The notes beneath the pieces are model-generated. The model was not told the origin of the DNA and searched no databases. It saw only the letters and a list, made by a program, of their open reading frames with translations. Both the position numbers and the translations under genes were made by a program. Of a stretch of DNA of 64,000 nucleotides, positions 1-13,807 are shown one piece after another; positions within the stretch are counted from its first letter, which is position 1; each line of letters starts with the position of its first letter. Location of the stretch: positions 149,859 through 213,858 of the forward strand of contig CAWBEI010000002.1 of assembly GCA_963787835.1 (NCBI GenBank), read 5' to 3'. The DNA is from Ignavibacteriota bacterium. Lineage in GTDB: Bacteria > Bacteroidota > Ignavibacteria > Palsa-1295.

Positions 1-547
1 TGCCCCGGACCTTCAAACGTAATTATATCAAAACCATGTTCAAAAAAATATAGCTGATGCCCAAACAACTCCTCAATATAACTGTCGAAACCTCCGAAGA
101 AAATAATAGTTCCGATGGGCGATTCCGGCGTGAACCGGTATGCACTCATGGTGATTTTCTCATACGGGATGTTGAAATGCTGCGTATCCTGTATTTGGTA
201 ATACTCCTTCATCCACTGTATGTAACGAAGGCGGCTTGCATCTTTCCTGCCGTCGTCGGGAAACATAAAAAATTCGGCTGAACGCAGATAACATGCAGCA
301 TGTAGCAGGCGGTTTTGCACGTATGCTTTTTCGGAAAGAGCCAAAAATTCACGGGTATAATCGGCATAGTTGTGGATAAGTGGGGTTACTTCCCTCATCT
401 CATCAAGCATCTGTTCCGAACCGTCAGAGAACCGGTTCATTTGATAATTGAGACTAATATCGGGGTGGATGGTATAATACCCAATATTAAATCCTTCTTT
501 AACTCTAACTACGGTCGTTTTTTTAGGATCTAAAGTTTCCGTTTTCA
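1..547 (-). CDS. alpha/beta-hydrolase fold protein (partial; C-terminus runs off the window start)
   Basis: Own translation of the reverse strand from the ATG at 545-547. It gives MKTETLDPKKTTVVRVKEGFNIGYYTIHPD...IIFFGGFDSYIEELFGHQLYFFEHGFDIITFEGPG with no stop before position 1. It is absent from the ORF track, presumably because no stop lies in the window. The motifs are hydrolase-like. Confidence 0.5.
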
Positions 548-570
548 TTTTATTTTGTTTTACCTGTGTG

Positions 571-1239
571 TTAATAACATACTTCTACCCTGGCCTTAAA
601 AGTTTTTTCGTCGTTCAAATGAGTTACCATGTAATCGGCAAGGTCGGCGCGCGAAATACTAGATGGGTTGCGTAAATGTTCATTGATGGCTATTCTATAT
701 TTTCCGGTTCGCTTATTATTAGTGAGCCGTGGAGCACGAATAACGGTCCAATCCAAATCAGATTTGCTAAGCACTTTTTCCATCCGTAACATGTCAGCAT
801 AAATATATTTGAATAACCGTTGTAAAATATATTTTACGACAAACTTCATTATGAAAGAACTTTTTGGGGGAATGATTACCGCGCCAGCCGTTATACAAAC
901 GATACGCTTAATCCCTGCTTTTTCCATGACCGTAACGATGTTACTTACTCCTTGTGAATAAACGGTGGTGGGCTTTTTTCTAGGGCTTCCTAAACACGAA
1001 ATAATAGCATCTTTCCCTTTCACTGCATCTTCAAAAGTAGCTGGCTGAAGTACATCTCCTTTAATAATTTCCAGATCCTTATTAGTGAGGGGAAAAGCAT
1101 CGGGATTCCGAACAATAACGGTAACCCGATAACCTGCTTCGAGTGCTTGCCGTGCAATAAGTTTGCCTGTTCCGCCCGTGGACCCGAATACCATTATGGT
1201 TTTCATCGTTGTTTTGTTTAGCGCCGATGTTTCAGTCAT
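571..1239 (-). CDS. NAD(P)H-binding NmrA/BVR-B-like oxidoreductase (likely real start at 1206, MKTIMVFGSTGGTGK)
   Basis: A Rossmann GxxGxxG motif sits at the N-terminus (FGSTGGTGKLIARQALEAGYRVTVIVR). Length is ~210 aa. Confidence 0.7.
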   Translation of the reverse strand: MTETSALNKTTMKTIMVFGSTGGTGKLIARQALEAGYRVTVIVRNPDAFPLTNKDLEIIKGDVLQPATFEDAVKGKDAIISCLGSPRKKPTTVYSQGVSNIVTVMEKAGIKRIVCITAGAVIIPPKSSFIMKFVVKYILQRLFKYIYADMLRMEKVLSKSDLDWTVIRAPRLTNNKRTGKYRIAINEHLRNPSSISRADLADYMVTHLNDEKTFKARVEVCY

Positions 1240-1281
1240 CCTTTTGTGTTAAATTTTAATCTTCACCGCTTGAAGAAAGGA

Positions 1282-1722
1282 TTAGGAATATAGATGGTGA
1301 GCTGTACCAGCTTCCGTAAGGGTCAATAAATCAAAGTATTCTCTAACTTCAACTAACTTACCTTCGTGAACTTCACACATTAGCATAATTGGCAGTTCGA
1401 ATTTTGTGCCCGGAGCAGGCCTCTGGGATGAAGTCGATGGCCACTTATCGGTAACGATTCCCGTATGCACATATTCCCAGCAGAGCTTTGTTCCTTCGGC
1501 ATTGGTGAAAACGTTTGTTGGCTTAATGCCCAGACCGTCACCGTGTTTCCTTGCCGCTACTGAACGGTTTGCGAGTTCCAGCATTTTATCAATTCCGATG
1601 AATGTTTCTCCGGTTGCCATTATTTTCCACTTGCCATCCGAGGCAAGAAGTTTTTTCCATCCTTCAATGTCATCGGAAGTAAATGCGGCAGTAAAAGCTT
1701 TTGCTAATTCGTCAGTGTTCAT
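1282..1722 (-). CDS. SnoaL-like / NTF2-like domain protein
   Basis: 146 aa. The pattern resembles the ketosteroid-isomerase-like fold. There is no signal peptide. Confidence 0.5.
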   Translation of the reverse strand: MNTDELAKAFTAAFTSDDIEGWKKLLASDGKWKIMATGETFIGIDKMLELANRSVAARKHGDGLGIKPTNVFTNAEGTKLCWEYVHTGIVTDKWPSTSSQRPAPGTKFELPIMLMCEVHEGKLVEVREYFDLLTLTEAGTAHHLYS

Positions 1723-1834
1723 TGGTTTTATAGTCCTTTTTATAGGATTAAGTGTAAAAGTAATTGCAAAAGCCCCGCCATAGGGCGGAGCTTATTGCAA
1801 TGCGATTTTCACCCCCTCGGAATAATCCGAGAAG

Positions 1835-1884
1835 GAGAAATTGGAAATGGTCAAATATGAATTCATAGCATTTCCAATTTCCTC
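1835..1884. promoter_or_regulatory. strong nested palindrome (13-bp perfect arms gaaattggaaatg / catttccaatttc around an internal tatgaattcata palindrome)
   Basis: Seen directly in the sequence. It is intergenic, between the stop of 1926..2138 and the start of 1282..1722. No U-tract follows it. Confidence 0.45.
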
Positions 1885-1925
1885 GATACGTTGAGTGATT
1901 AAAAATAGTAGTCTGCTACGCTAAT

Positions 1926-2138
1926 TTAGCGAGCTGTGACATCTTTATTTTCTTTCACGACCTCTTTGTTTTGTGTCCCAACTGGTTGATCTCCACCGAC
2001 GCTTTTGGGTGCCGAATTGCTGCTTCCTGCCGAGCTGGTTTGCCCGACTGGAGTGGTGGCTTTCTGCTCCGTGCTGGATGTGGATGTGCTCGGAGTCGAT
2101 GATGCGCTGGCGATAGGAGTTGATGTTGAATTATTCAT
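1926..2138 (-). CDS. hypothetical Ser/Thr-rich small protein
   Basis: 70-aa ORF of low complexity (STPIASASSTPSTSTSST). Its coding status is uncertain. Confidence 0.3.
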   Translation of the reverse strand: MNNSTSTPIASASSTPSTSTSSTEQKATTPVGQTSSAGSSNSAPKSVGGDQPVGTQNKEVVKENKDVTAR

Positions 2139-2252
2139 TGTATATTTTTATTGTTTAAAGAGAGCATACAATATTGTGTGCCCTAAAAGTTGTAGTTGAA
2201 TTGTGGCTAGAACCGTATCCCGCTGCAATATCGAGTGATCCCATACGTTTTA

Positions 2253-2321
2253 TCAGATGTGGCAGCTACCCACGACGAACAACGTGGCTAAAACGACTAA
2301 AACGATTACAACGATATACAT
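2253..2321 (-). CDS. tiny hydrophobic peptide ORF (MYIVVIVLVVLATLFVVGSCHI), copy 1 of a tandem pair
   Basis: Own translation. An SD-like aagaaggg lies ~9 nt upstream of the ATG. The paralog at 2445..2516 differs from it partly by synonymous changes. Confidence 0.45.
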   Translation of the reverse strand: MYIVVIVLVVLATLFVVGSCHI

Positions 2322-2444
2322 AATAGTTACCCTTCTTAAATTAATGTTATTGTGATATTATTGGTATTTCATTTATGGATAAAAACCGAATTCCCGCTGC
2401 AATATCGAATCTTCATCGTCTTGCACCGATATGATCCATAACCT

Positions 2445-2516
2445 TTAACAGGCGTGGCAGCTACCGACGACGAACAACGTGGCCAAAACGACTATAACGA
2501 TCCAGAGTATATTCAT
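2445..2516 (-). CDS. tiny hydrophobic peptide ORF (MNILWIVIVVLATLFVVGSCHAC), copy 2 of a tandem pair
   Basis: Own translation. An SD-like aagaaagg lies upstream. It sits immediately downstream of the small OMP gene on the same strand. Confidence 0.45.
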   Translation of the reverse strand: MNILWIVIVVLATLFVVGSCHAC

Positions 2517-2564
2517 AATAGTTACCTTTCTTCGCGTAATGCTTATATGATTCCGGTATTTTAT

Positions 2565-3074
2565 TTAAGGATAAAACCGGATACCTGCTGCAGCATCAAG
2601 CCCTGCTCCCGTTGGCGAAAGCCCGATGATCGGACCAAGCTCGAAAAATATTTCAATCGGCGATCGTTCTGGAATGATGTTCAATCCGAACATCACGCGG
2701 GCTGCGATGCCCATACTATTATCGCTGCTATAAAATTCGCGGCCACCATAGATACCGTTCCCATCGCCGAAGGCAAGGCAAAGCCCCGGTCCGGCGAACA
2801 TTTTGACCACACGACTATTGAAGACATCGAAATGCCAAAGATAGTCGCCATCGAGGCGAGTCGGACCGAAGTCCGACTCGCCGATGTCGAATGTGAACGC
2901 ATTGACGGGGTTCGTCCATATTTTAATGGTAGCCCCCAGAGGATCGAACACGACCAGGCCGAATCCGAAGGTTCGACCATCGGGCCCCTGAGCACGGCTT
3001 TCGCTCGAGCCGAGCATCAGGGTTAATAACCCGACGGCCAAAATCTTTGCGCTTATTTTATTGAATGTTCTCAT
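2565..3074 (-). CDS. small outer-membrane beta-barrel protein (OmpW/porin-like)
   Basis: It has a signal peptide (MRTFNKISAKILAVGLLTLMLGSSESRAQ), alternating beta-strand character and a C-terminal aromatic residue (…GIRFYP). Confidence 0.55.
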   Translation of the reverse strand: MRTFNKISAKILAVGLLTLMLGSSESRAQGPDGRTFGFGLVVFDPLGATIKIWTNPVNAFTFDIGESDFGPTRLDGDYLWHFDVFNSRVVKMFAGPGLCLAFGDGNGIYGGREFYSSDNSMGIAARVMFGLNIIPERSPIEIFFELGPIIGLSPTGAGLDAAAGIRFYP

Positions 3075-3101
3075 GCGATTCCTTGCGTGTTTCAGGTGTG
3101 A

Positions 3102-4340
3102 TTATTGACACGCCTGAACGACCATCACCGAAATGCGGCGGTTCTGCGTGCGTTCTGCTTCGAGGTCCGAAGCCGATACGTCCGTTCGTTCGCGAACGGC
3201 TGGACGTGTGTCGCCATAGCCGATCGTGCGGGTGATCTTGTCCGGACTTACCCCTTGCGCGATCAGCCAGTCATGAATGCGCGTTGCACGACGCTCGGAG
3301 AGTTCCTGGTTATGCTCATGAGTCCCTTCCTCGCTTGCATACCCTTGAATCTCGACCTTGAGGTTCGGGCATTGATCGACCAAGGCTTTGATGTGGTAGA
3401 GATGACCCATATTATTTGGCTCCGCATTGTTGAACTGATCGCTGTTCACAATAAATAACGTCCCCGGGAAGTTAAATACAGTGTTGATCTTCGGATTCGT
3501 CAAATAGACGGTATCAGTCGGGTTCTGAATATACAGCGTATCGGTGTGATAGATGTTGTTATCCGTGCGGTAGTTATTCGTGTTATAGTTATTTGTTGTG
3601 TTTCCCTGGTATGGGGCGGGCGCAACCGGCACATCGGGCGAGAAGAGAACCACGCTGAACCCGAGACCCATGCTTAGGTATGCATCCTGGCTGTAAGCGG
3701 CTGGATTCGAGTAATCGTCAAGCCAATCGGTTCCTGTTAAGTGTATAAGTCCCTTGCCAACAAAAGCAACCTTGGGAGTAATGTAGTATTCAAAACCTAC
3801 GCCCAGGACACCGCCAACGACGTTTTTGCTATATGCATTGATGGCATTGTTTCTCAACGGGGTCGGAGATCCATCATCCGGTTGGAAGTTGAGTAGCTCT
3901 AATCCACCTACGAAATAGGGAACGAACGTTTGCGATGGAAAGACGTTGCCTGACAACATAAGATCCCATCCGCCAACGCGAGTTTGGTTTGTTGAGCCGA
4001 CCGGACCACCATCCGCGCCAGCGTTACCACTGCCTACGCCAGTTCCGGGGAGTAGATACTCGTTAGCAATGCTTTGTGTGGTGGATTTATAATGCAACAC
4101 ACCGCCATTATAGGCAGCATGAAGCGATAGCCAATCAAGGATGTTCCATCGGATGAATGCGTCGCCCTGCAAGGAAAACAGGTCGCCCGTATAATTACCG
4201 TAGTATTTATCACCTCCGGCATCGAAGCCGAAGGAAAGACTGCCAGGGATGACCTGTGCATGAGCCTTGGTGCCCATGAGGCCGAGCACACCGATTACAA
4301 GCAGCGCAAAGCTGCGATTCTTTAGATTTAGATTTTTCAC
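3102..4340 (-). CDS. OmpA-family outer membrane protein
   Basis: It has a signal peptide and an N-terminal beta-barrel region. The C-terminal OmpA_C domain is present (NAEPNNMGHL…LSERRATRIHDWLIAQGVSPDKI…RRISV). Confidence 0.8.
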   Translation of the reverse strand: MKNLNLKNRSFALLVIGVLGLMGTKAHAQVIPGSLSFGFDAGGDKYYGNYTGDLFSLQGDAFIRWNILDWLSLHAAYNGGVLHYKSTTQSIANEYLLPGTGVGSGNAGADGGPVGSTNQTRVGGWDLMLSGNVFPSQTFVPYFVGGLELLNFQPDDGSPTPLRNNAINAYSKNVVGGVLGVGFEYYITPKVAFVGKGLIHLTGTDWLDDYSNPAAYSQDAYLSMGLGFSVVLFSPDVPVAPAPYQGNTTNNYNTNNYRTDNNIYHTDTLYIQNPTDTVYLTNPKINTVFNFPGTLFIVNSDQFNNAEPNNMGHLYHIKALVDQCPNLKVEIQGYASEEGTHEHNQELSERRATRIHDWLIAQGVSPDKITRTIGYGDTRPAVRERTDVSASDLEAERTQNRRISVMVVQACQ

Positions 4341-4570
4341 GATTTTTTACTGTTTATGATAAAATGAGTTGAGTGAGCATTGCGCGTTCGAAGACGCAAG
4401 TGAAGAACCGACCCTTAGAGGTCTGGCTACTTACAAATAAGGCTTAGTAGAAGACGAATTGATTAGAGTCTGAATGATCGATCATCCAGATAGTTCCAAT
4501 CCGTTCTGCTCGAACAGGGTCTTGTGAGTAAGGAACAAACACCGTCGGCGATGGGCCTTCAATAGTTGTT

Positions 4571-4656
4571 CTCATAATTCTCTGATACAAAGTTACGGAA
4601 AGGGGCGTTGGAATGTGTTACAAAATTTTAGAAATAAGTTACATAATTCACACATT
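4571..4656. promoter_or_regulatory. conserved intergenic element copy 1 (core GTGTTACAAAATTTTAGAAATAAGTTACATAATTCACACATT at 4615-4656)
   Basis: One of six copies. It is ~275 bp 5' of the minus-strand OmpA-family gene and just 3' of 4730..4933. Confidence 0.5.
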
Positions 4657-4729
4657 CCGGTCGTTAGTTCGGCGCATGGGTTTCTCCTATCCCCATACGC
4701 CGAGGAATAACGATCGTTGGGTGTTATCC

Positions 4730-4933
4730 TTATCGGATATGAACCCCCAAGACGACTTTAGCGTGGTGACGACGGCGACGGCGGCGATGATGACGATAAT
4801 GAGGTGCAACCCTGACGCCTACGCCTACTCGGACTTGGCTTGCACTTGCGCTCGTAGTCCCAGAAGCGGTGAACTGCACCATTCCGAAGGCTAAAGCACA
4901 GAAAACGATCAGCCTGATTGTTAGATGTTTCAT
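4730..4933 (-). CDS. small secreted peptide with His/Arg-rich tail
   Basis: The signal peptide is MKHLTIRLIVFCALAFGMVQFTASG. The tail is HYRHHRRRRRRHH. Conserved element copy 2 lies ~110 bp upstream. Confidence 0.35.
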   Translation of the reverse strand: MKHLTIRLIVFCALAFGMVQFTASGTTSASASQVRVGVGVRVAPHYRHHRRRRRRHHAKVVLGVHIR

Positions 4934-5001
4934 TGTGTAGTTATGATTTAGATATATAAAGATAATATTTGTATGTGGAAGAATGTTTTCAATGAATTCC
5001 T

Positions 5002-5087
5002 CTCATATTTCTCTGGTACAAACTTACGGATTGAAGACATAAAATGTGTTACAAAATTTTAGAAATAAGTTACATAATTCACACATT
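5002..5087. promoter_or_regulatory. conserved intergenic element copy 2 (core 5046-5087)
   Basis: It is nearly identical to copy 1 over ~85 bp (ctcatatttctctggtacaaacttacgga…). Confidence 0.5.
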
Positions 5088-5152
5088 GAAGACCCCGCCG
5101 GTAAGGTGGGACCCCATGCCCCACCTCTTGTGAAATACAATACAATAAGTTA

Positions 5153-5872
5153 CTATCGTTTTCCGCCGCCCTTGGGCGCTCCGCCGCCTCTCGAAGCACC
5201 ACCACCTTTAGGGGCTGCGGCAGGCTTCACGTATCCTCTCCCATAATTTAAATTCTTGCTCGCAGCCGGCATGGAAGGAGTGATGGACTTCATTGGCACT
5301 TCATGTGCTACACGATGATATGTCGCAGGCGCATGATCGTTCTGGACCGGCCGCTGCATGAACGTCACGCGGTTACTATTCTCATTGAATGCTCGAGGAA
5401 CGAGCCGGTGACCTGGCGCAGTGTTCGTGACGATCCGGTTGCGAACGACAATGTCCGTGTAATTATCGTACCCATGCGATGGATAATTTCTGCGATAATA
5501 CCCCTCGTTCATCCACGGGCGAGAAATATTGCGGTCGATGAGCACCATAAACGCACCGCCCAGGTCAATACCTGCATATTGAGGTGGCAAGCCCTCGCTG
5601 TAGATCCACTCGCCGTTGGGGCCAGCGTACCAGAACTGACCATCCCACACGTCATAATACATATCGTAATCGGGAAGGTAATAATAACGCACGGAACTGG
5701 TATTGTCGTACGGTGGCGCCCATGATGGCGGTACATAGTTCTGAACATCGATGGAGGCGCCGATGCGGATCTGAGCCTCGCTTGAGTTTGTATAGAATGC
5801 GAGTGCGAATGTGAGCGCCAGAAAAACGGACGTTCTTCGTAACCGTAGGGATAGAATAGAATGTATTTTCAT
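5153..5872 (-). CDS. secreted hypothetical protein with Gly/Lys-rich C-terminus
   Basis: It has a signal peptide (…FALAFYTNSSEAQ). It is Tyr/Trp-rich and ends in a PKGGGASRGGGAPKGGGKR tail. Confidence 0.45.
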   Translation of the reverse strand: MKIHSILSLRLRRTSVFLALTFALAFYTNSSEAQIRIGASIDVQNYVPPSWAPPYDNTSSVRYYYLPDYDMYYDVWDGQFWYAGPNGEWIYSEGLPPQYAGIDLGGAFMVLIDRNISRPWMNEGYYRRNYPSHGYDNYTDIVVRNRIVTNTAPGHRLVPRAFNENSNRVTFMQRPVQNDHAPATYHRVAHEVPMKSITPSMPAASKNLNYGRGYVKPAAAPKGGGASRGGGAPKGGGKR

Positions 5873-5943
5873 AAGTATTATGTATTGTAACTGTTATAAT
5901 AGCGTTGGGGATATGATTTTTGATTGATTAACGACGTGTTCTG

Positions 5944-6186
5944 TCAGAAGAATAACTCTGGAATGTTGTCGTCATAATGCTTATCTACAAAGATTTGTCG
6001 TTGGGATTCAGATAGTGCAGCATCATCGGATGATGTCGCTGCACTCTTTTCAAATTCTGAATCTGTCGGAGGGTTCAAATTACTTGGAAGGTTTCCAAGA
6101 ATCTCGGATCTGGAATTCCGATGCTGGACCTCGTGATAACCAAGAAGCTGCATGAGACTGCGATTTCTTGAAGTACTATTTTTCAT
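5944..6186 (-). CDS. hypothetical protein
   Basis: 80-aa ORF in a co-directional gene array. No recognisable motif was found. Confidence 0.25.
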   Translation of the reverse strand: MKNSTSRNRSLMQLLGYHEVQHRNSRSEILGNLPSNLNPPTDSEFEKSAATSSDDAALSESQRQIFVDKHYDDNIPELFF

Positions 6187-6202: not shown

Positions 6203-6505
6203 TTAATCAATAGAGAAATCGGTCGCCGAACTGATCCTGGATTTTATCTCACTTTTCAGCGATTCAAGCTTTTCCGTGAAGGCATCGCTCAGTTGCCCGA
6301 TACGATCTTCGATTGTTTCGGCTACATCATCAATAACGCCTTCCCCTTTGCGGCGAATAACTCTCCGCAACACGCTCCCCTTATAGGGAGAATAAAGCAT
6401 TCCCGCCGCAGCACCGATGGCCGCACCGGCTAAAAGACCGAGCAGGAGATTTCCACCGCTGTTCATGGAGTTCGAGTTGTGTCCGCAATGTTTGCATTGT
6501 TCCAT
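6203..6505 (-). CDS. YtxH-like protein (general-stress type)
   Basis: It has a Gly-rich amphipathic N-terminal segment (LLLGLLAGAAIGAAAGMLYSP) followed by a coiled-coil tail. An N-terminal CxxC is present. Confidence 0.45.
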   Translation of the reverse strand: MEQCKHCGHNSNSMNSGGNLLLGLLAGAAIGAAAGMLYSPYKGSVLRRVIRRKGEGVIDDVAETIEDRIGQLSDAFTEKLESLKSEIKSRISSATDFSID

Positions 6506-6660
6506 TAGAGCACCCTCCTTCCGCTGATAACTCTCATAATAATCGCAATGATCGCGATGACCAGGAGGATGTGGATCAGCGCACCTGCGCCATACACGAG
6601 GAACCCGAGTGCCCAGGCAATAATTAGGATTACTGCAACCAAGTATAATAAACTTCCCAT
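6505..6660 (-). CDS. lmo0937-family small membrane protein (51 aa)
   Basis: Own translation gives MGSLLYLVAVILIIAWALGFLVYGAGALIHILLVIAIIAIIMRVISGRRVL. It is not in the ORF track because it is under 60 aa. Confidence 0.5.
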   Translation of the reverse strand: MGSLLYLVAVILIIAWALGFLVYGAGALIHILLVIAIIAIIMRVISGRRVL

Positions 6661-7750: not shown

Positions 7751-7813
7751 ATACGGAGATCATCATCTGAAAGTGTTACAAAATTTTAGAAAAAAGTTAC
7801 ATAATTCACACAT
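7751..7813. promoter_or_regulatory. conserved intergenic element copy 3 (core 7773-7813)
   Basis: It is ~35 bp 5' of the YceI-like start codon. Confidence 0.5.
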
Positions 7814-10335: not shown

Positions 10336-10400
10336 AATACGGTGGCAACCTTCAAAAAACGTTGCAAAATTTTGGAAAAGAGTTACATAATTCACACATT
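10336..10400. promoter_or_regulatory. conserved intergenic element copy 4 (core 10361-10400)
   Basis: It is ~65 bp 5' of the SDR start. Confidence 0.5.
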
Positions 10401-10781: not shown

Positions 10782-10843
10782 TACGGCAATGGCCTTCAAA
10801 AGAGGTTACAAAATTTTAGAAAAAAGTTACAAAATTCACACAT
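10782..10843. promoter_or_regulatory. conserved intergenic element copy 5 (core 10804-10843)
   Basis: It lies between the start of 10444..10656 (minus) and the start of the AI-2E transporter gene (plus). Confidence 0.5.
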
Positions 10844-13730: not shown

Positions 13731-13807
13731 CCACCAGTACAAAGATATGAAATTCAACCGAAAGACACGTTACAAAATTTTAGGAAAAAGTTACAAAATT
13801 CACACAT
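13731..13807. promoter_or_regulatory. conserved intergenic element copy 6 (core 13769-13807)
   Basis: It is ~75 bp 5' of the AsmA-like start. It overlaps the stop codon of the AraC gene. Confidence 0.5.

Follow-up and report, generated by a model that had tools for sequence, protein, structure and literature searches.

Two minus-strand open reading frames (ORFs) encoding hydrophobic peptides of 22–23 amino acids (aa) lie in a tandem repeat at positions 2200–2600 of a 64-kb stretch of Ignavibacteriota DNA (the window, in whose numbering all positions are given), directly behind a gene for a small outer membrane protein (OMP), and the question they raise is whether frames this short are genes at all and, if so, what kind of protein they encode. 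As judged from sequence comparison, both are genuine protein-coding genes, here called pep1 and pep2. We hold with moderate confidence that they represent a new family of single-helix inner-membrane micro-proteins, encoded by the distal gene of an envelope operon that comprises an OmpA-like gene and the OMP gene, and duplicated via repeats of the OMP 3′ end. The two mini-ORFs, the ~190-bp repeat, an AAGAA(A/G)GG motif ahead of each ORF and repeated fragments of the OMP 3′ end had been described in the first-pass annotation of this DNA, and all were found, the OMP 3′ end in three copies. The genes concerned are the following.

2253..2321 (-): pep1, the distal peptide gene, encoding MYIVVIVLVVLATLFVVGSCHI, with a TGA stop followed by an in-frame TAA at 2250-2252; the conserved copy
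2445..2516 (-): pep2, the proximal peptide gene, encoding MNILWIVIVVLATLFVVGSCHAC; the divergent copy
2322..2337 (-): translation-initiation region of pep1, with AAGAAGGG at 2330-2337 and the 8-nt spacer TAACTATT
2517..2532 (-): translation-initiation region of pep2, with AAGAAAGG at 2525-2532 and the same 8-nt spacer, TAACTATT
2565..3074 (-): gene for a small 8-stranded β-barrel OMP of 169 aa, ending GIRFYP; the constant upstream neighbour of the peptide gene

Orthologues were sought by three routes, and the relatives obtained are metagenome-assembled genomes labelled Ignavibacteriota or Ignavibacteriae as well as unbinned metagenome contigs. A scan anchored on the OMP, with one genome per species, gave 80 loci, two of which (L002 and L062) carry the peptide ORF ~100 nt 3′ of the OMP gene. 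The fully codon-degenerate pattern I-V-x-V-V-L-A-T-L-F-V, run over metagenome contigs, returned nine matches, i.e., seven unrelated membrane proteins and two true copies (L081 and L089), both directly 3′ of the OMP gene, and L093 and L094 came from contigs that code for the nearest homologues of the OMP. Including the window, there are eight copies of the peptide gene in seven genomes or contigs, all of them 3′ of the OMP gene, with the consensus M-Y-I-V-[IV]-I-V-[LI]-V-V-L-A-T-L-F-V-V-[GSD]-S-C-H-[IFVA]-[FC], i.e., MYIVIIVLVVLATLFVV[GSD]SCH followed by one or two residues. The L002 peptide ends in ...FVLRAC and a stop, its start and frame being kept despite the shorter C-terminus.

Over the seven orthologous copies, 15 synonymous codon-state changes stand against 4 non-synonymous ones (V5I, L8I and G18S/D), and 11 of the 17 variable sites fall at codon position 3 (p = 0.008), whereas each of the other five frames of the ORF shows mostly non-synonymous changes. 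It is this comparison that bears out the selection on the reading frame proposed earlier on the grounds of synonymous differences between the two window copies; the examples then given are correct, but the copies differ by 3 synonymous and 5 non-synonymous codons, which alone is weak as evidence of selection. The ORF is as variable (13 of 63 sites) as the non-coding leader in the same four genomes (13 of 57), so the constraint acts on the protein and not on the DNA or RNA. Extra constraint at the nucleotide level, with third-position divergence below that of the OMP gene, was considered and rejected, as the locus is a mosaic of 60–100% identity blocks and the ORF varies as much as its leader. 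The start region is open, A-rich and strongly conserved (AAGAAAGGTAAC), AAGAAAGGTAACTAT(T/C)ATG being nearly invariant in seven of the eight copies, and in both pep1 and pep2 the Shine–Dalgarno (SD)-like AAGAA(G/A)GG motif stands 8 nt ahead of the ATG.

These patterns bear directly on whether the ORF is non-functional, either a leftover of rearrangement at the 3′ end of the OMP gene or a chance frame within an OMP 3′-untranslated region (3′-UTR) or RNA element. The site is indeed prone to rearrangement: OMP-end fragments are left over, the downstream gene is one of three, and identity is mosaic. In addition, a 9-nt tandem repeat lies within the ORF core, and the gene is often absent. Nevertheless, the codon-position pattern and the 15:4 ratio are specific to the peptide frame, and a remnant ORF of 29 codons at 2155..2244, which runs across the third OMP-end fragment, shows mostly non-synonymous changes relative to its L062 counterpart (read by eye), unlike the peptide ORF. 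Start codon, spacing and upstream motif are conserved in all copies, there is neither an RNA structure nor an Rfam match, and shuffled peptides score as well against OMP signal peptides and DUF5670 proteins as the real ones do. We consider a non-functional origin distinctly improbable.

The peptides of the eight copies are 20–23 aa long. Residues 1–17 are nearly all I, V, L, F or A, with a mean Kyte–Doolittle hydropathy of ~2.6 (hand calculation), and the polar, uncharged C-terminus consists of [GSD]-S-C-H and one or two hydrophobic residues, without K, R, E or Trp; Cys20 is invariant in eight of eight copies and the His is present in seven. Composition and coding constraint agree with the earlier description of a hydrophobic mini-protein or small membrane protein, which is the right kind. 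Searches of Pfam at E ≤ 10 gave chance matches only (Smim3 at 0.13, Comm and DUF2897), the peptides found nothing at the same cut-off in NCBIfam or PADLOC, and Rfam at E ≤ 1 over window positions 1-6000 gave two chance matches, both outside the repeat. The concatenated pep1 and pep2 peptides, compared with 5.8 billion predicted proteins, shared words with three candidates, none at E ≤ 10; the codon-degenerate pattern had no match in viral contigs, and neither tblastn against plasmids nor blastn against phages produced one. The family is undescribed; its kind, a small hydrophobic membrane protein beside larger genes, is well known. Comparative codon analysis can thus validate a 22-codon gene that was missed by gene callers and is missing from 5.8 billion database proteins.

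The VVGSC ending had also been called lipobox-like, which would make the peptide a lipoprotein precursor, cut by Lgt/LspA between VGS and C to give a lipidated Cys-His-Ile peptide or to release a signalling hydrophobic peptide. VVGSC does fit the lipobox pattern and the Cys is at position 20 in every copy, and tandem small entericidin lipoprotein genes as well as 21–23-aa signal-peptide-like precursors of enterococcal inhibitor peptides offer precedents. The expected pattern is a Cys at position 15–35 with a mature polypeptide behind it; here Cys20 is invariant and 0–3 residues follow. However, the likeness is not upheld by the other copies: VGSC occurs in five, replaced by VSSC in L093, VDSC (in full VVDSC) in L094 and LRAC-stop in L002, so that position -2 is G, S or D and the L002 gene would leave a one-residue mature 'protein'. 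The PROSITE rule PS51257 places a charged n-region, i.e., K or R, within the first ~7 residues, whereas no copy has K or R anywhere in residues 1–17. The hydrophobic core of ~16 residues is longer than the h-region typical of lipoproteins, and we know of no precedent for a mature part of 1–4 residues. The entericidins EcnA and EcnB themselves resemble the present locus in being two tandem paralogous mini-genes with a lipobox-like ...GSC; they are 40–50 aa long, their n-region is charged and a genuine mature portion follows, whereas here the n-region has no charge, the lipobox is not conserved and only 0–3 residues follow Cys20. A lipoprotein precursor is very improbable.

In all copies the peptide gene stands behind the OMP gene, which raises the question of how it is expressed. 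Two further elements upstream are needed here.

3102..4340 (-): OmpA-like gene with a C-terminal OmpA domain (PF00691, E 6e-16); first gene of the putative operon
4616..4652 (-): 37-nt motif TGTGAATTATGTAACTTATTTCTAAAATTTTGTAACA, ~280 nt 5′ of the OmpA-like gene; candidate promoter or operator

The OMP is modelled by AlphaFold2 as a signal helix and 8 strands (mean pLDDT 80.5), with weak fold matches to the PagL, OprF (OprF-N) and OmpA (OmpA-TM) barrels at E 5e-3 to 2e-2 and none at E ≤ 1e-3; all of its 47 homologues have the GIRFYP end, and some carry PF13161. The order of the OmpA-like and OMP genes is kept in every relative whose upstream gene was read. From the OMP stop to the peptide gene there are 48 nt on the same strand in five of the eight copies, the other three having an insert of ~45 nt. 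No terminator-like site was found between the OMP and peptide genes, the first strong terminator-like structure coming only after the next gene, a Ser/Thr (S/T)-rich ORF, and a sigma-70 promoter scan found nothing in front of pep1 or pep2. Two types of upstream junction occur among the copies and have only the start-codon-proximal region in common, so that no conserved promoter of the gene's own is visible. This layout makes it most likely that the peptide is co-transcribed with the OMP, and the operon would run from a repeated promoter-like motif through the OmpA-like gene and the 8-stranded OMP gene to the peptide gene.

That motif is present four times in the window as the 37-mer (4616-4652, 5047-5083, 7774-7810 and 10804-10840) and six times as a 28-nt core (the same sites plus 10361-10388 and 13769-13796), always on the minus strand and with 0 copies expected in either case. 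The core also occurs on the gene strand in the loci of nine relatives, upstream of the OmpA-like gene where this was checked (L091, L092 and L089). The motif resembles a promoter or operator serving a regulon. Copies of the 37-nt motif precede minus-strand genes of envelope or stress type, i.e., the OmpA-like gene, an R/H-rich 67-aa secreted protein, a YceI-like protein, an SDR and others.

How the second copy arose can be read from the anatomy of the repeat, which consists of the following parts.

2407..2597 (-): repeat unit 1 (191 nt), with the native OMP 3′ end, the 48-nt spacer, and pep2 with its 3′ flank
2233..2406 (-): repeat unit 2 (174 nt), with a redundant OMP-end fragment, the spacer and pep1, whose 3′ flank is shorter (a 21-nt gap against unit 1)
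2382-2406 (-): the redundant OMP-3′-end fragment in unit 2, reading DIAAGIRF and then a 1-nt insertion
2208..2232 (-): third, degenerate OMP-3′-end fragment, reading DIAAGY..., 72% identity; shared with L062

A repeat finder aligned a 116-nt block at 2241-2356 with 2436-2551 (78% identity, spacing 195) and a 27-nt block at 2363-2389 with 2555-2581 (85% identity), and it placed a 25-nt segment of the OMP 3′ end at 2208-2232, 2382-2406 and 2573-2597 (spacing 174 and 191), the last of which is the true 3′ end of the OMP gene. A 26-mer of the ORF core has only two sites in the 64 kb, those of pep1 and pep2, against 0.00 expected. On the gene strand the order is OMP, pep2, OMP-end fragment, pep1, degenerate OMP-end fragment and the next gene, and the array amounts to two peptide genes and two redundant OMP-end fragments, with nothing further. 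Both the repeat families and the alignment of the units confirm that the duplicated module is the OMP 3′ end plus the peptide gene, as the first-pass annotation had it. Its description of a tandem multicopy organization holds for this genome, but does not extend to the six others, each of which has a single copy.

Three downstream contexts exist: the peptide gene is followed by the S/T-rich ORF in the window and in L062, by a gene for a secreted protein rich in His, Gln and Arg in L081, L089 and L093, and by one for an ice-binding-like protein in L002 and L094. Across them the linkage to the OMP gene is the sole constant. The peptide is confined to loci whose OMP shares ~65% identity or more with that of the window, and it is absent from ten loci with OMPs 63–79% identical (L001, L006, L090-L092 and L095-L099). 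L001 is syntenic with the window, and there the intact OMP end is joined straight to the leader of the S/T-rich ORF, without a peptide gene; by this junction, the third OMP-end fragment of the window and L062 is the old OMP end, left behind by insertion or duplication of a segment running from an OMP 3′ end to the peptide gene. Recombination between the OMP-end repeats can equally delete the peptide and recreate the L001 state, and gene loss by the same repeats would explain the patchy distribution.

The second copy does not appear to be new. At the DNA level pep1 is 88–96% identical to the copies in L062, L081, L089 and L002 and 82% identical to pep2, which is 79–83% identical to all other copies; moreover, the 3′ end of pep2, CACGCCTGTTAA, resembles CGCGCATGTTAA of L002, with C-terminal codons in common. 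Because pep1 is closer to other genomes than to pep2, and pep2 shares these codons with L002, a fresh in-situ duplication does not account for the pair; by these identities, one copy (pep1) is conserved and the other (pep2) has diverged. Identity along the locus is mosaic (~2560-4400 compared with L093, L002, L062, L081, L089 and L094), with blocks of 96–100% beside blocks of ~60–70%, and blocks of high identity lie inside the OMP gene, e.g., between the window and L093 or L002. This suggests frequent homologous recombination among lineages, or else chimeric metagenome assemblies. The second copy and the OMP-end fragments would stem from recombination between short OMP-3′-end repeats at a recombination-prone site, and comparison with L001 suggests that the old OMP end is what remained after an insertion or a tandem event. 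The locus would thereby record how a mini-gene is gained, lost and duplicated by way of short repeats derived from its neighbour's 3′ end.

A further reading is a selfish cassette of ~140–190 bp that moves between related Ignavibacteriota through recombination at the 3′ end of one particular OMP gene. It would carry or regenerate that end, leaving the host gene whole and a shortened duplicate behind. Such a cassette would persist because its peptide is toxic to the membrane, or addictive, once expression is no longer controlled, i.e., type I-like without the antisense architecture. We give this explanation little credence, in its spread, its way of insertion and its mode of persistence alike.

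The remaining question on the nature of the gene is whether it is a type I toxin, since the first-pass annotation had likened it to ldr, ibs, shoB and zor loci. Criteria were taken from Fozo et al., who describe small (<60–70 aa) hydrophobic proteins with one predicted transmembrane (TM) helix, encoded at loci that are typically well separated from flanking genes, and who used tandem duplication with similarity beyond the ORF as a criterion for new families (PMC2887945). Such a toxin would here be an Ibs-type, membrane-depolarizing peptide whose translation is checked by an antisense or nearby small RNA that escaped detection. At 22–23 aa and with a single helix, the peptides agree with this description, and in size and composition they resemble IbsC, which has 19 aa and is nearly all TM helix (PMC12648545). 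The tandem duplication with similarity reaching beyond the ORF, the narrow and patchy distribution among close relatives, and the lack of annotation in any database searched point the same way, and duplication and patchiness are likewise shared with the Ibs/Sib, Ldr/Rdl and ZorO/OrzO systems (PMC2887945, PMC12648545). A C-terminal cluster of charged, polar or bulky residues is a further criterion; the C-terminus here is polar but uncharged.

However, the RNA features expected of such a locus, namely a cis-antisense or adjacent small RNA, which is usually highly structured and seen as a local free-energy minimum, and an mRNA fold that hides the ribosome-binding site, were not detected. Neither strand has a local minimum of folding energy within 2200-2600 (z -2.4 to +2.6), strong minima occurring only at 1740-1900, and folding of the region as a whole gave z +0.74 and +0.58 for the two strands. 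In the folds predicted for five loci, the SD-like motif and the ATG are left unpaired (z -1.5 to +1.6), and are thus not sequestered. The sequence 3′ of the ORF differs between genomes and holds no conserved antisense promoter, and a check for trans-pairing found no complementarity between a structured element at 1760-1925 (see below) and the peptide mRNAs. A small hairpin spanning the OMP stop codon was rejected as a candidate because it is not conserved. Furthermore, unlike the well-separated typical loci, the peptide gene is no isolated intergenic unit, lying 48 nt behind a same-strand OMP gene with no terminator between; it is single-copy in six of seven genomes, and its product has no Pfam match (E ≤ 10) to Ibs, Ldr, Fst or Hok. 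A peptide lethal at low dose would probably be hard to tolerate at such a distance behind the OMP gene. The likeness to these toxins is not supported on these counts, and a type I toxin–antitoxin locus is unlikely.

In the reading we favour, neither an RNA-controlled suicide toxin nor a lipoprotein is supported; instead, the peptide would consist of one TM helix (residues 1–17), followed by the conserved Ser-Cys-His and 1–2 hydrophobic residues, and would insert in the inner membrane by analogy with CydX, KdpF and YohP. It may act through contacts between helices or by associating with itself, and Cys20 and His21, which would lie at the membrane interface, are the residues likely to matter for function. 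Its role could be to modulate the membrane, or a protein within it, while the envelope operon is expressed. Small membrane proteins of a single helix beside larger genes are well documented, e.g., CydX downstream of cydAB and the 27-aa YohP (PMC12648545, PMC7549839). Like CydX (37 aa) and KdpF, the peptide is very short and has one helix, its gene immediately follows larger envelope or membrane genes on their strand, annotation readily overlooks it, and the protein sequence is conserved (PMC12648545). However, the partner of CydX or KdpF is an inner-membrane complex, whereas here the upstream gene encodes an outer-membrane barrel; the peptide is also shorter (20–23 aa), is dispensable in many close relatives and has no sequence similarity to either. 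E. coli YohP is alike in being essentially one TM helix without a catalytic domain, and it depolarizes the membrane when highly made, yet is no classical toxin–antitoxin toxin (PMC7549839, PMC12719787). YohP comes from a different phylum, has no homology to the peptide and has no link to an OMP gene. What the locus adds is an unannotated micro-protein family from an uncultured phylum that is strictly linked to one OMP gene, with no new mechanism unless the peptide is toxic or a partner of the OMP.

Several points weigh against this reading. We infer the transcription, the translation and the membrane location of the peptide. A peptide of the inner membrane and a protein of the outer membrane do not suggest a direct complex; absence from the ten related loci makes the peptide dispensable for the OMP. 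The ~45-nt insert between the OMP and peptide genes in L002, L062 and L093 carries a weak hairpin, and the other junction type has a TAATAT -10-like hexamer ~35 nt upstream, so that independent transcription of the peptide gene is possible. Finally, within 25 nt ahead of the first ATG, the 59 long ORFs of the window (at least 150 aa) show no enrichment of SD-type sequences, which makes AAGAAAGG uncertain as a ribosome-binding site.

With respect to the last two points, a conserved hairpin or terminator in the L062/L002/L093 insert was tried and rejected, since the consensus is weak (-2.6 kcal/mol) and has no compensatory pairs. Upstream of the same 59 ORFs the 5-mers GTTAC, TTACA and ACACA are enriched (e.g., TGTTACAAAATAATG), often ≤15 nt from the ATG, which hints at very short leaders or a start-proximal promoter element, as in Bacteroidota. 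Given the lack of SD enrichment elsewhere, the conserved AAGAAAGG before the peptide genes is unusual for this genome.

Two ideas on the origin of the peptide were examined and rejected. As a decayed OMP signal peptide, i.e., the N-terminus of a tandem paralogue, it gave BLOSUM62 local scores that were matched by 12–37% of shuffles. The second idea, a truncated DUF5670 gene, came from L091, where a 49-aa gene of the DUF5670/lmo0937 type (PF18919, E 9e-13) holds the peptide's position directly behind the OMP gene, and from shared 10–11-mers, among them the 11-mer GTAACTATTAT, common to the L091 gene and the peptide leader. However, 16–53% of shuffles score as high, which is not significant, and the peptide has no profile match to PF18919 at E ≤ 10; DUF5670 proteins have two helices and a C-terminal GRR, whereas the peptide is a single helix without GRR. 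The 49-aa two-helix DUF5670 gene shifts its position between loci (L091 3565-3714, L090 5794-5943, L002 7426-7575 and L001 2336-2485), and a more distant paralogue is found in the window at 6505-6660 (-).

Downstream of the peptide genes, the window contains three further elements.

2161..2184 (-): imperfect hairpin or palindrome AGGGCACACAATATTGTATGCTCT, between pep1 and the S/T-rich ORF, ~25 nt 5′ of the latter
1926..2138 (-): S/T/N-rich ORF of 70 aa; downstream neighbour of the peptide locus in this lineage only
1760..1925 (-): structured 3′ region of three hairpins, the last of them terminator-like, ...GCTCCGCCCTATGGCGGGGCTTTTGC; local folding z -6 to -8

The palindrome is kept in L062 (~4756-4779) and L001 (~4533-4556) with two pairs altered on both sides, and may be an operator or a weak terminator. 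Homologues of the S/T-rich ORF occur in L062 (4799-5094), L001 (4573-4857) and L091 (3879-4186); the ends, MNNSTSTPIA... and ...SNSAPKSVGGDQPVGTQNKEVVKENKDVTAR, are conserved, and the low-complexity middle varies, giving ~70–100 aa. The ORF encodes no signal peptide and has no match in Pfam, NCBIfam or PADLOC. The structured region behind it is ~160 nt long and includes a perfect 13-bp stem at 1837-1881. A consensus structure with five pairs altered on both sides is shared by four genomes (L062 5092-5262, L001 4846-5025 and L091 4184-4345, in addition to the window), and Rfam gave no significant match to the region. This is likely the end of the transcription unit, and it could act as a 3′-UTR-derived small RNA or a compound terminator.

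A family of small secreted proteins, with the signal peptide MK[NH]R.TI.LIVFSAL.LG.GQF and repetitive tails rich in His, Arg, Gln and Asp, recurs near these loci, i.e., in the window at 4730-4933 (-), in L081 at 5670-6080, in L089 at ~5030-4600 (-), in L093 at 1222-1338 and in L096 from ~1305 onward. In several relatives its gene adjoins the OMP/peptide locus, and in the window it lies upstream of the OmpA-like gene.

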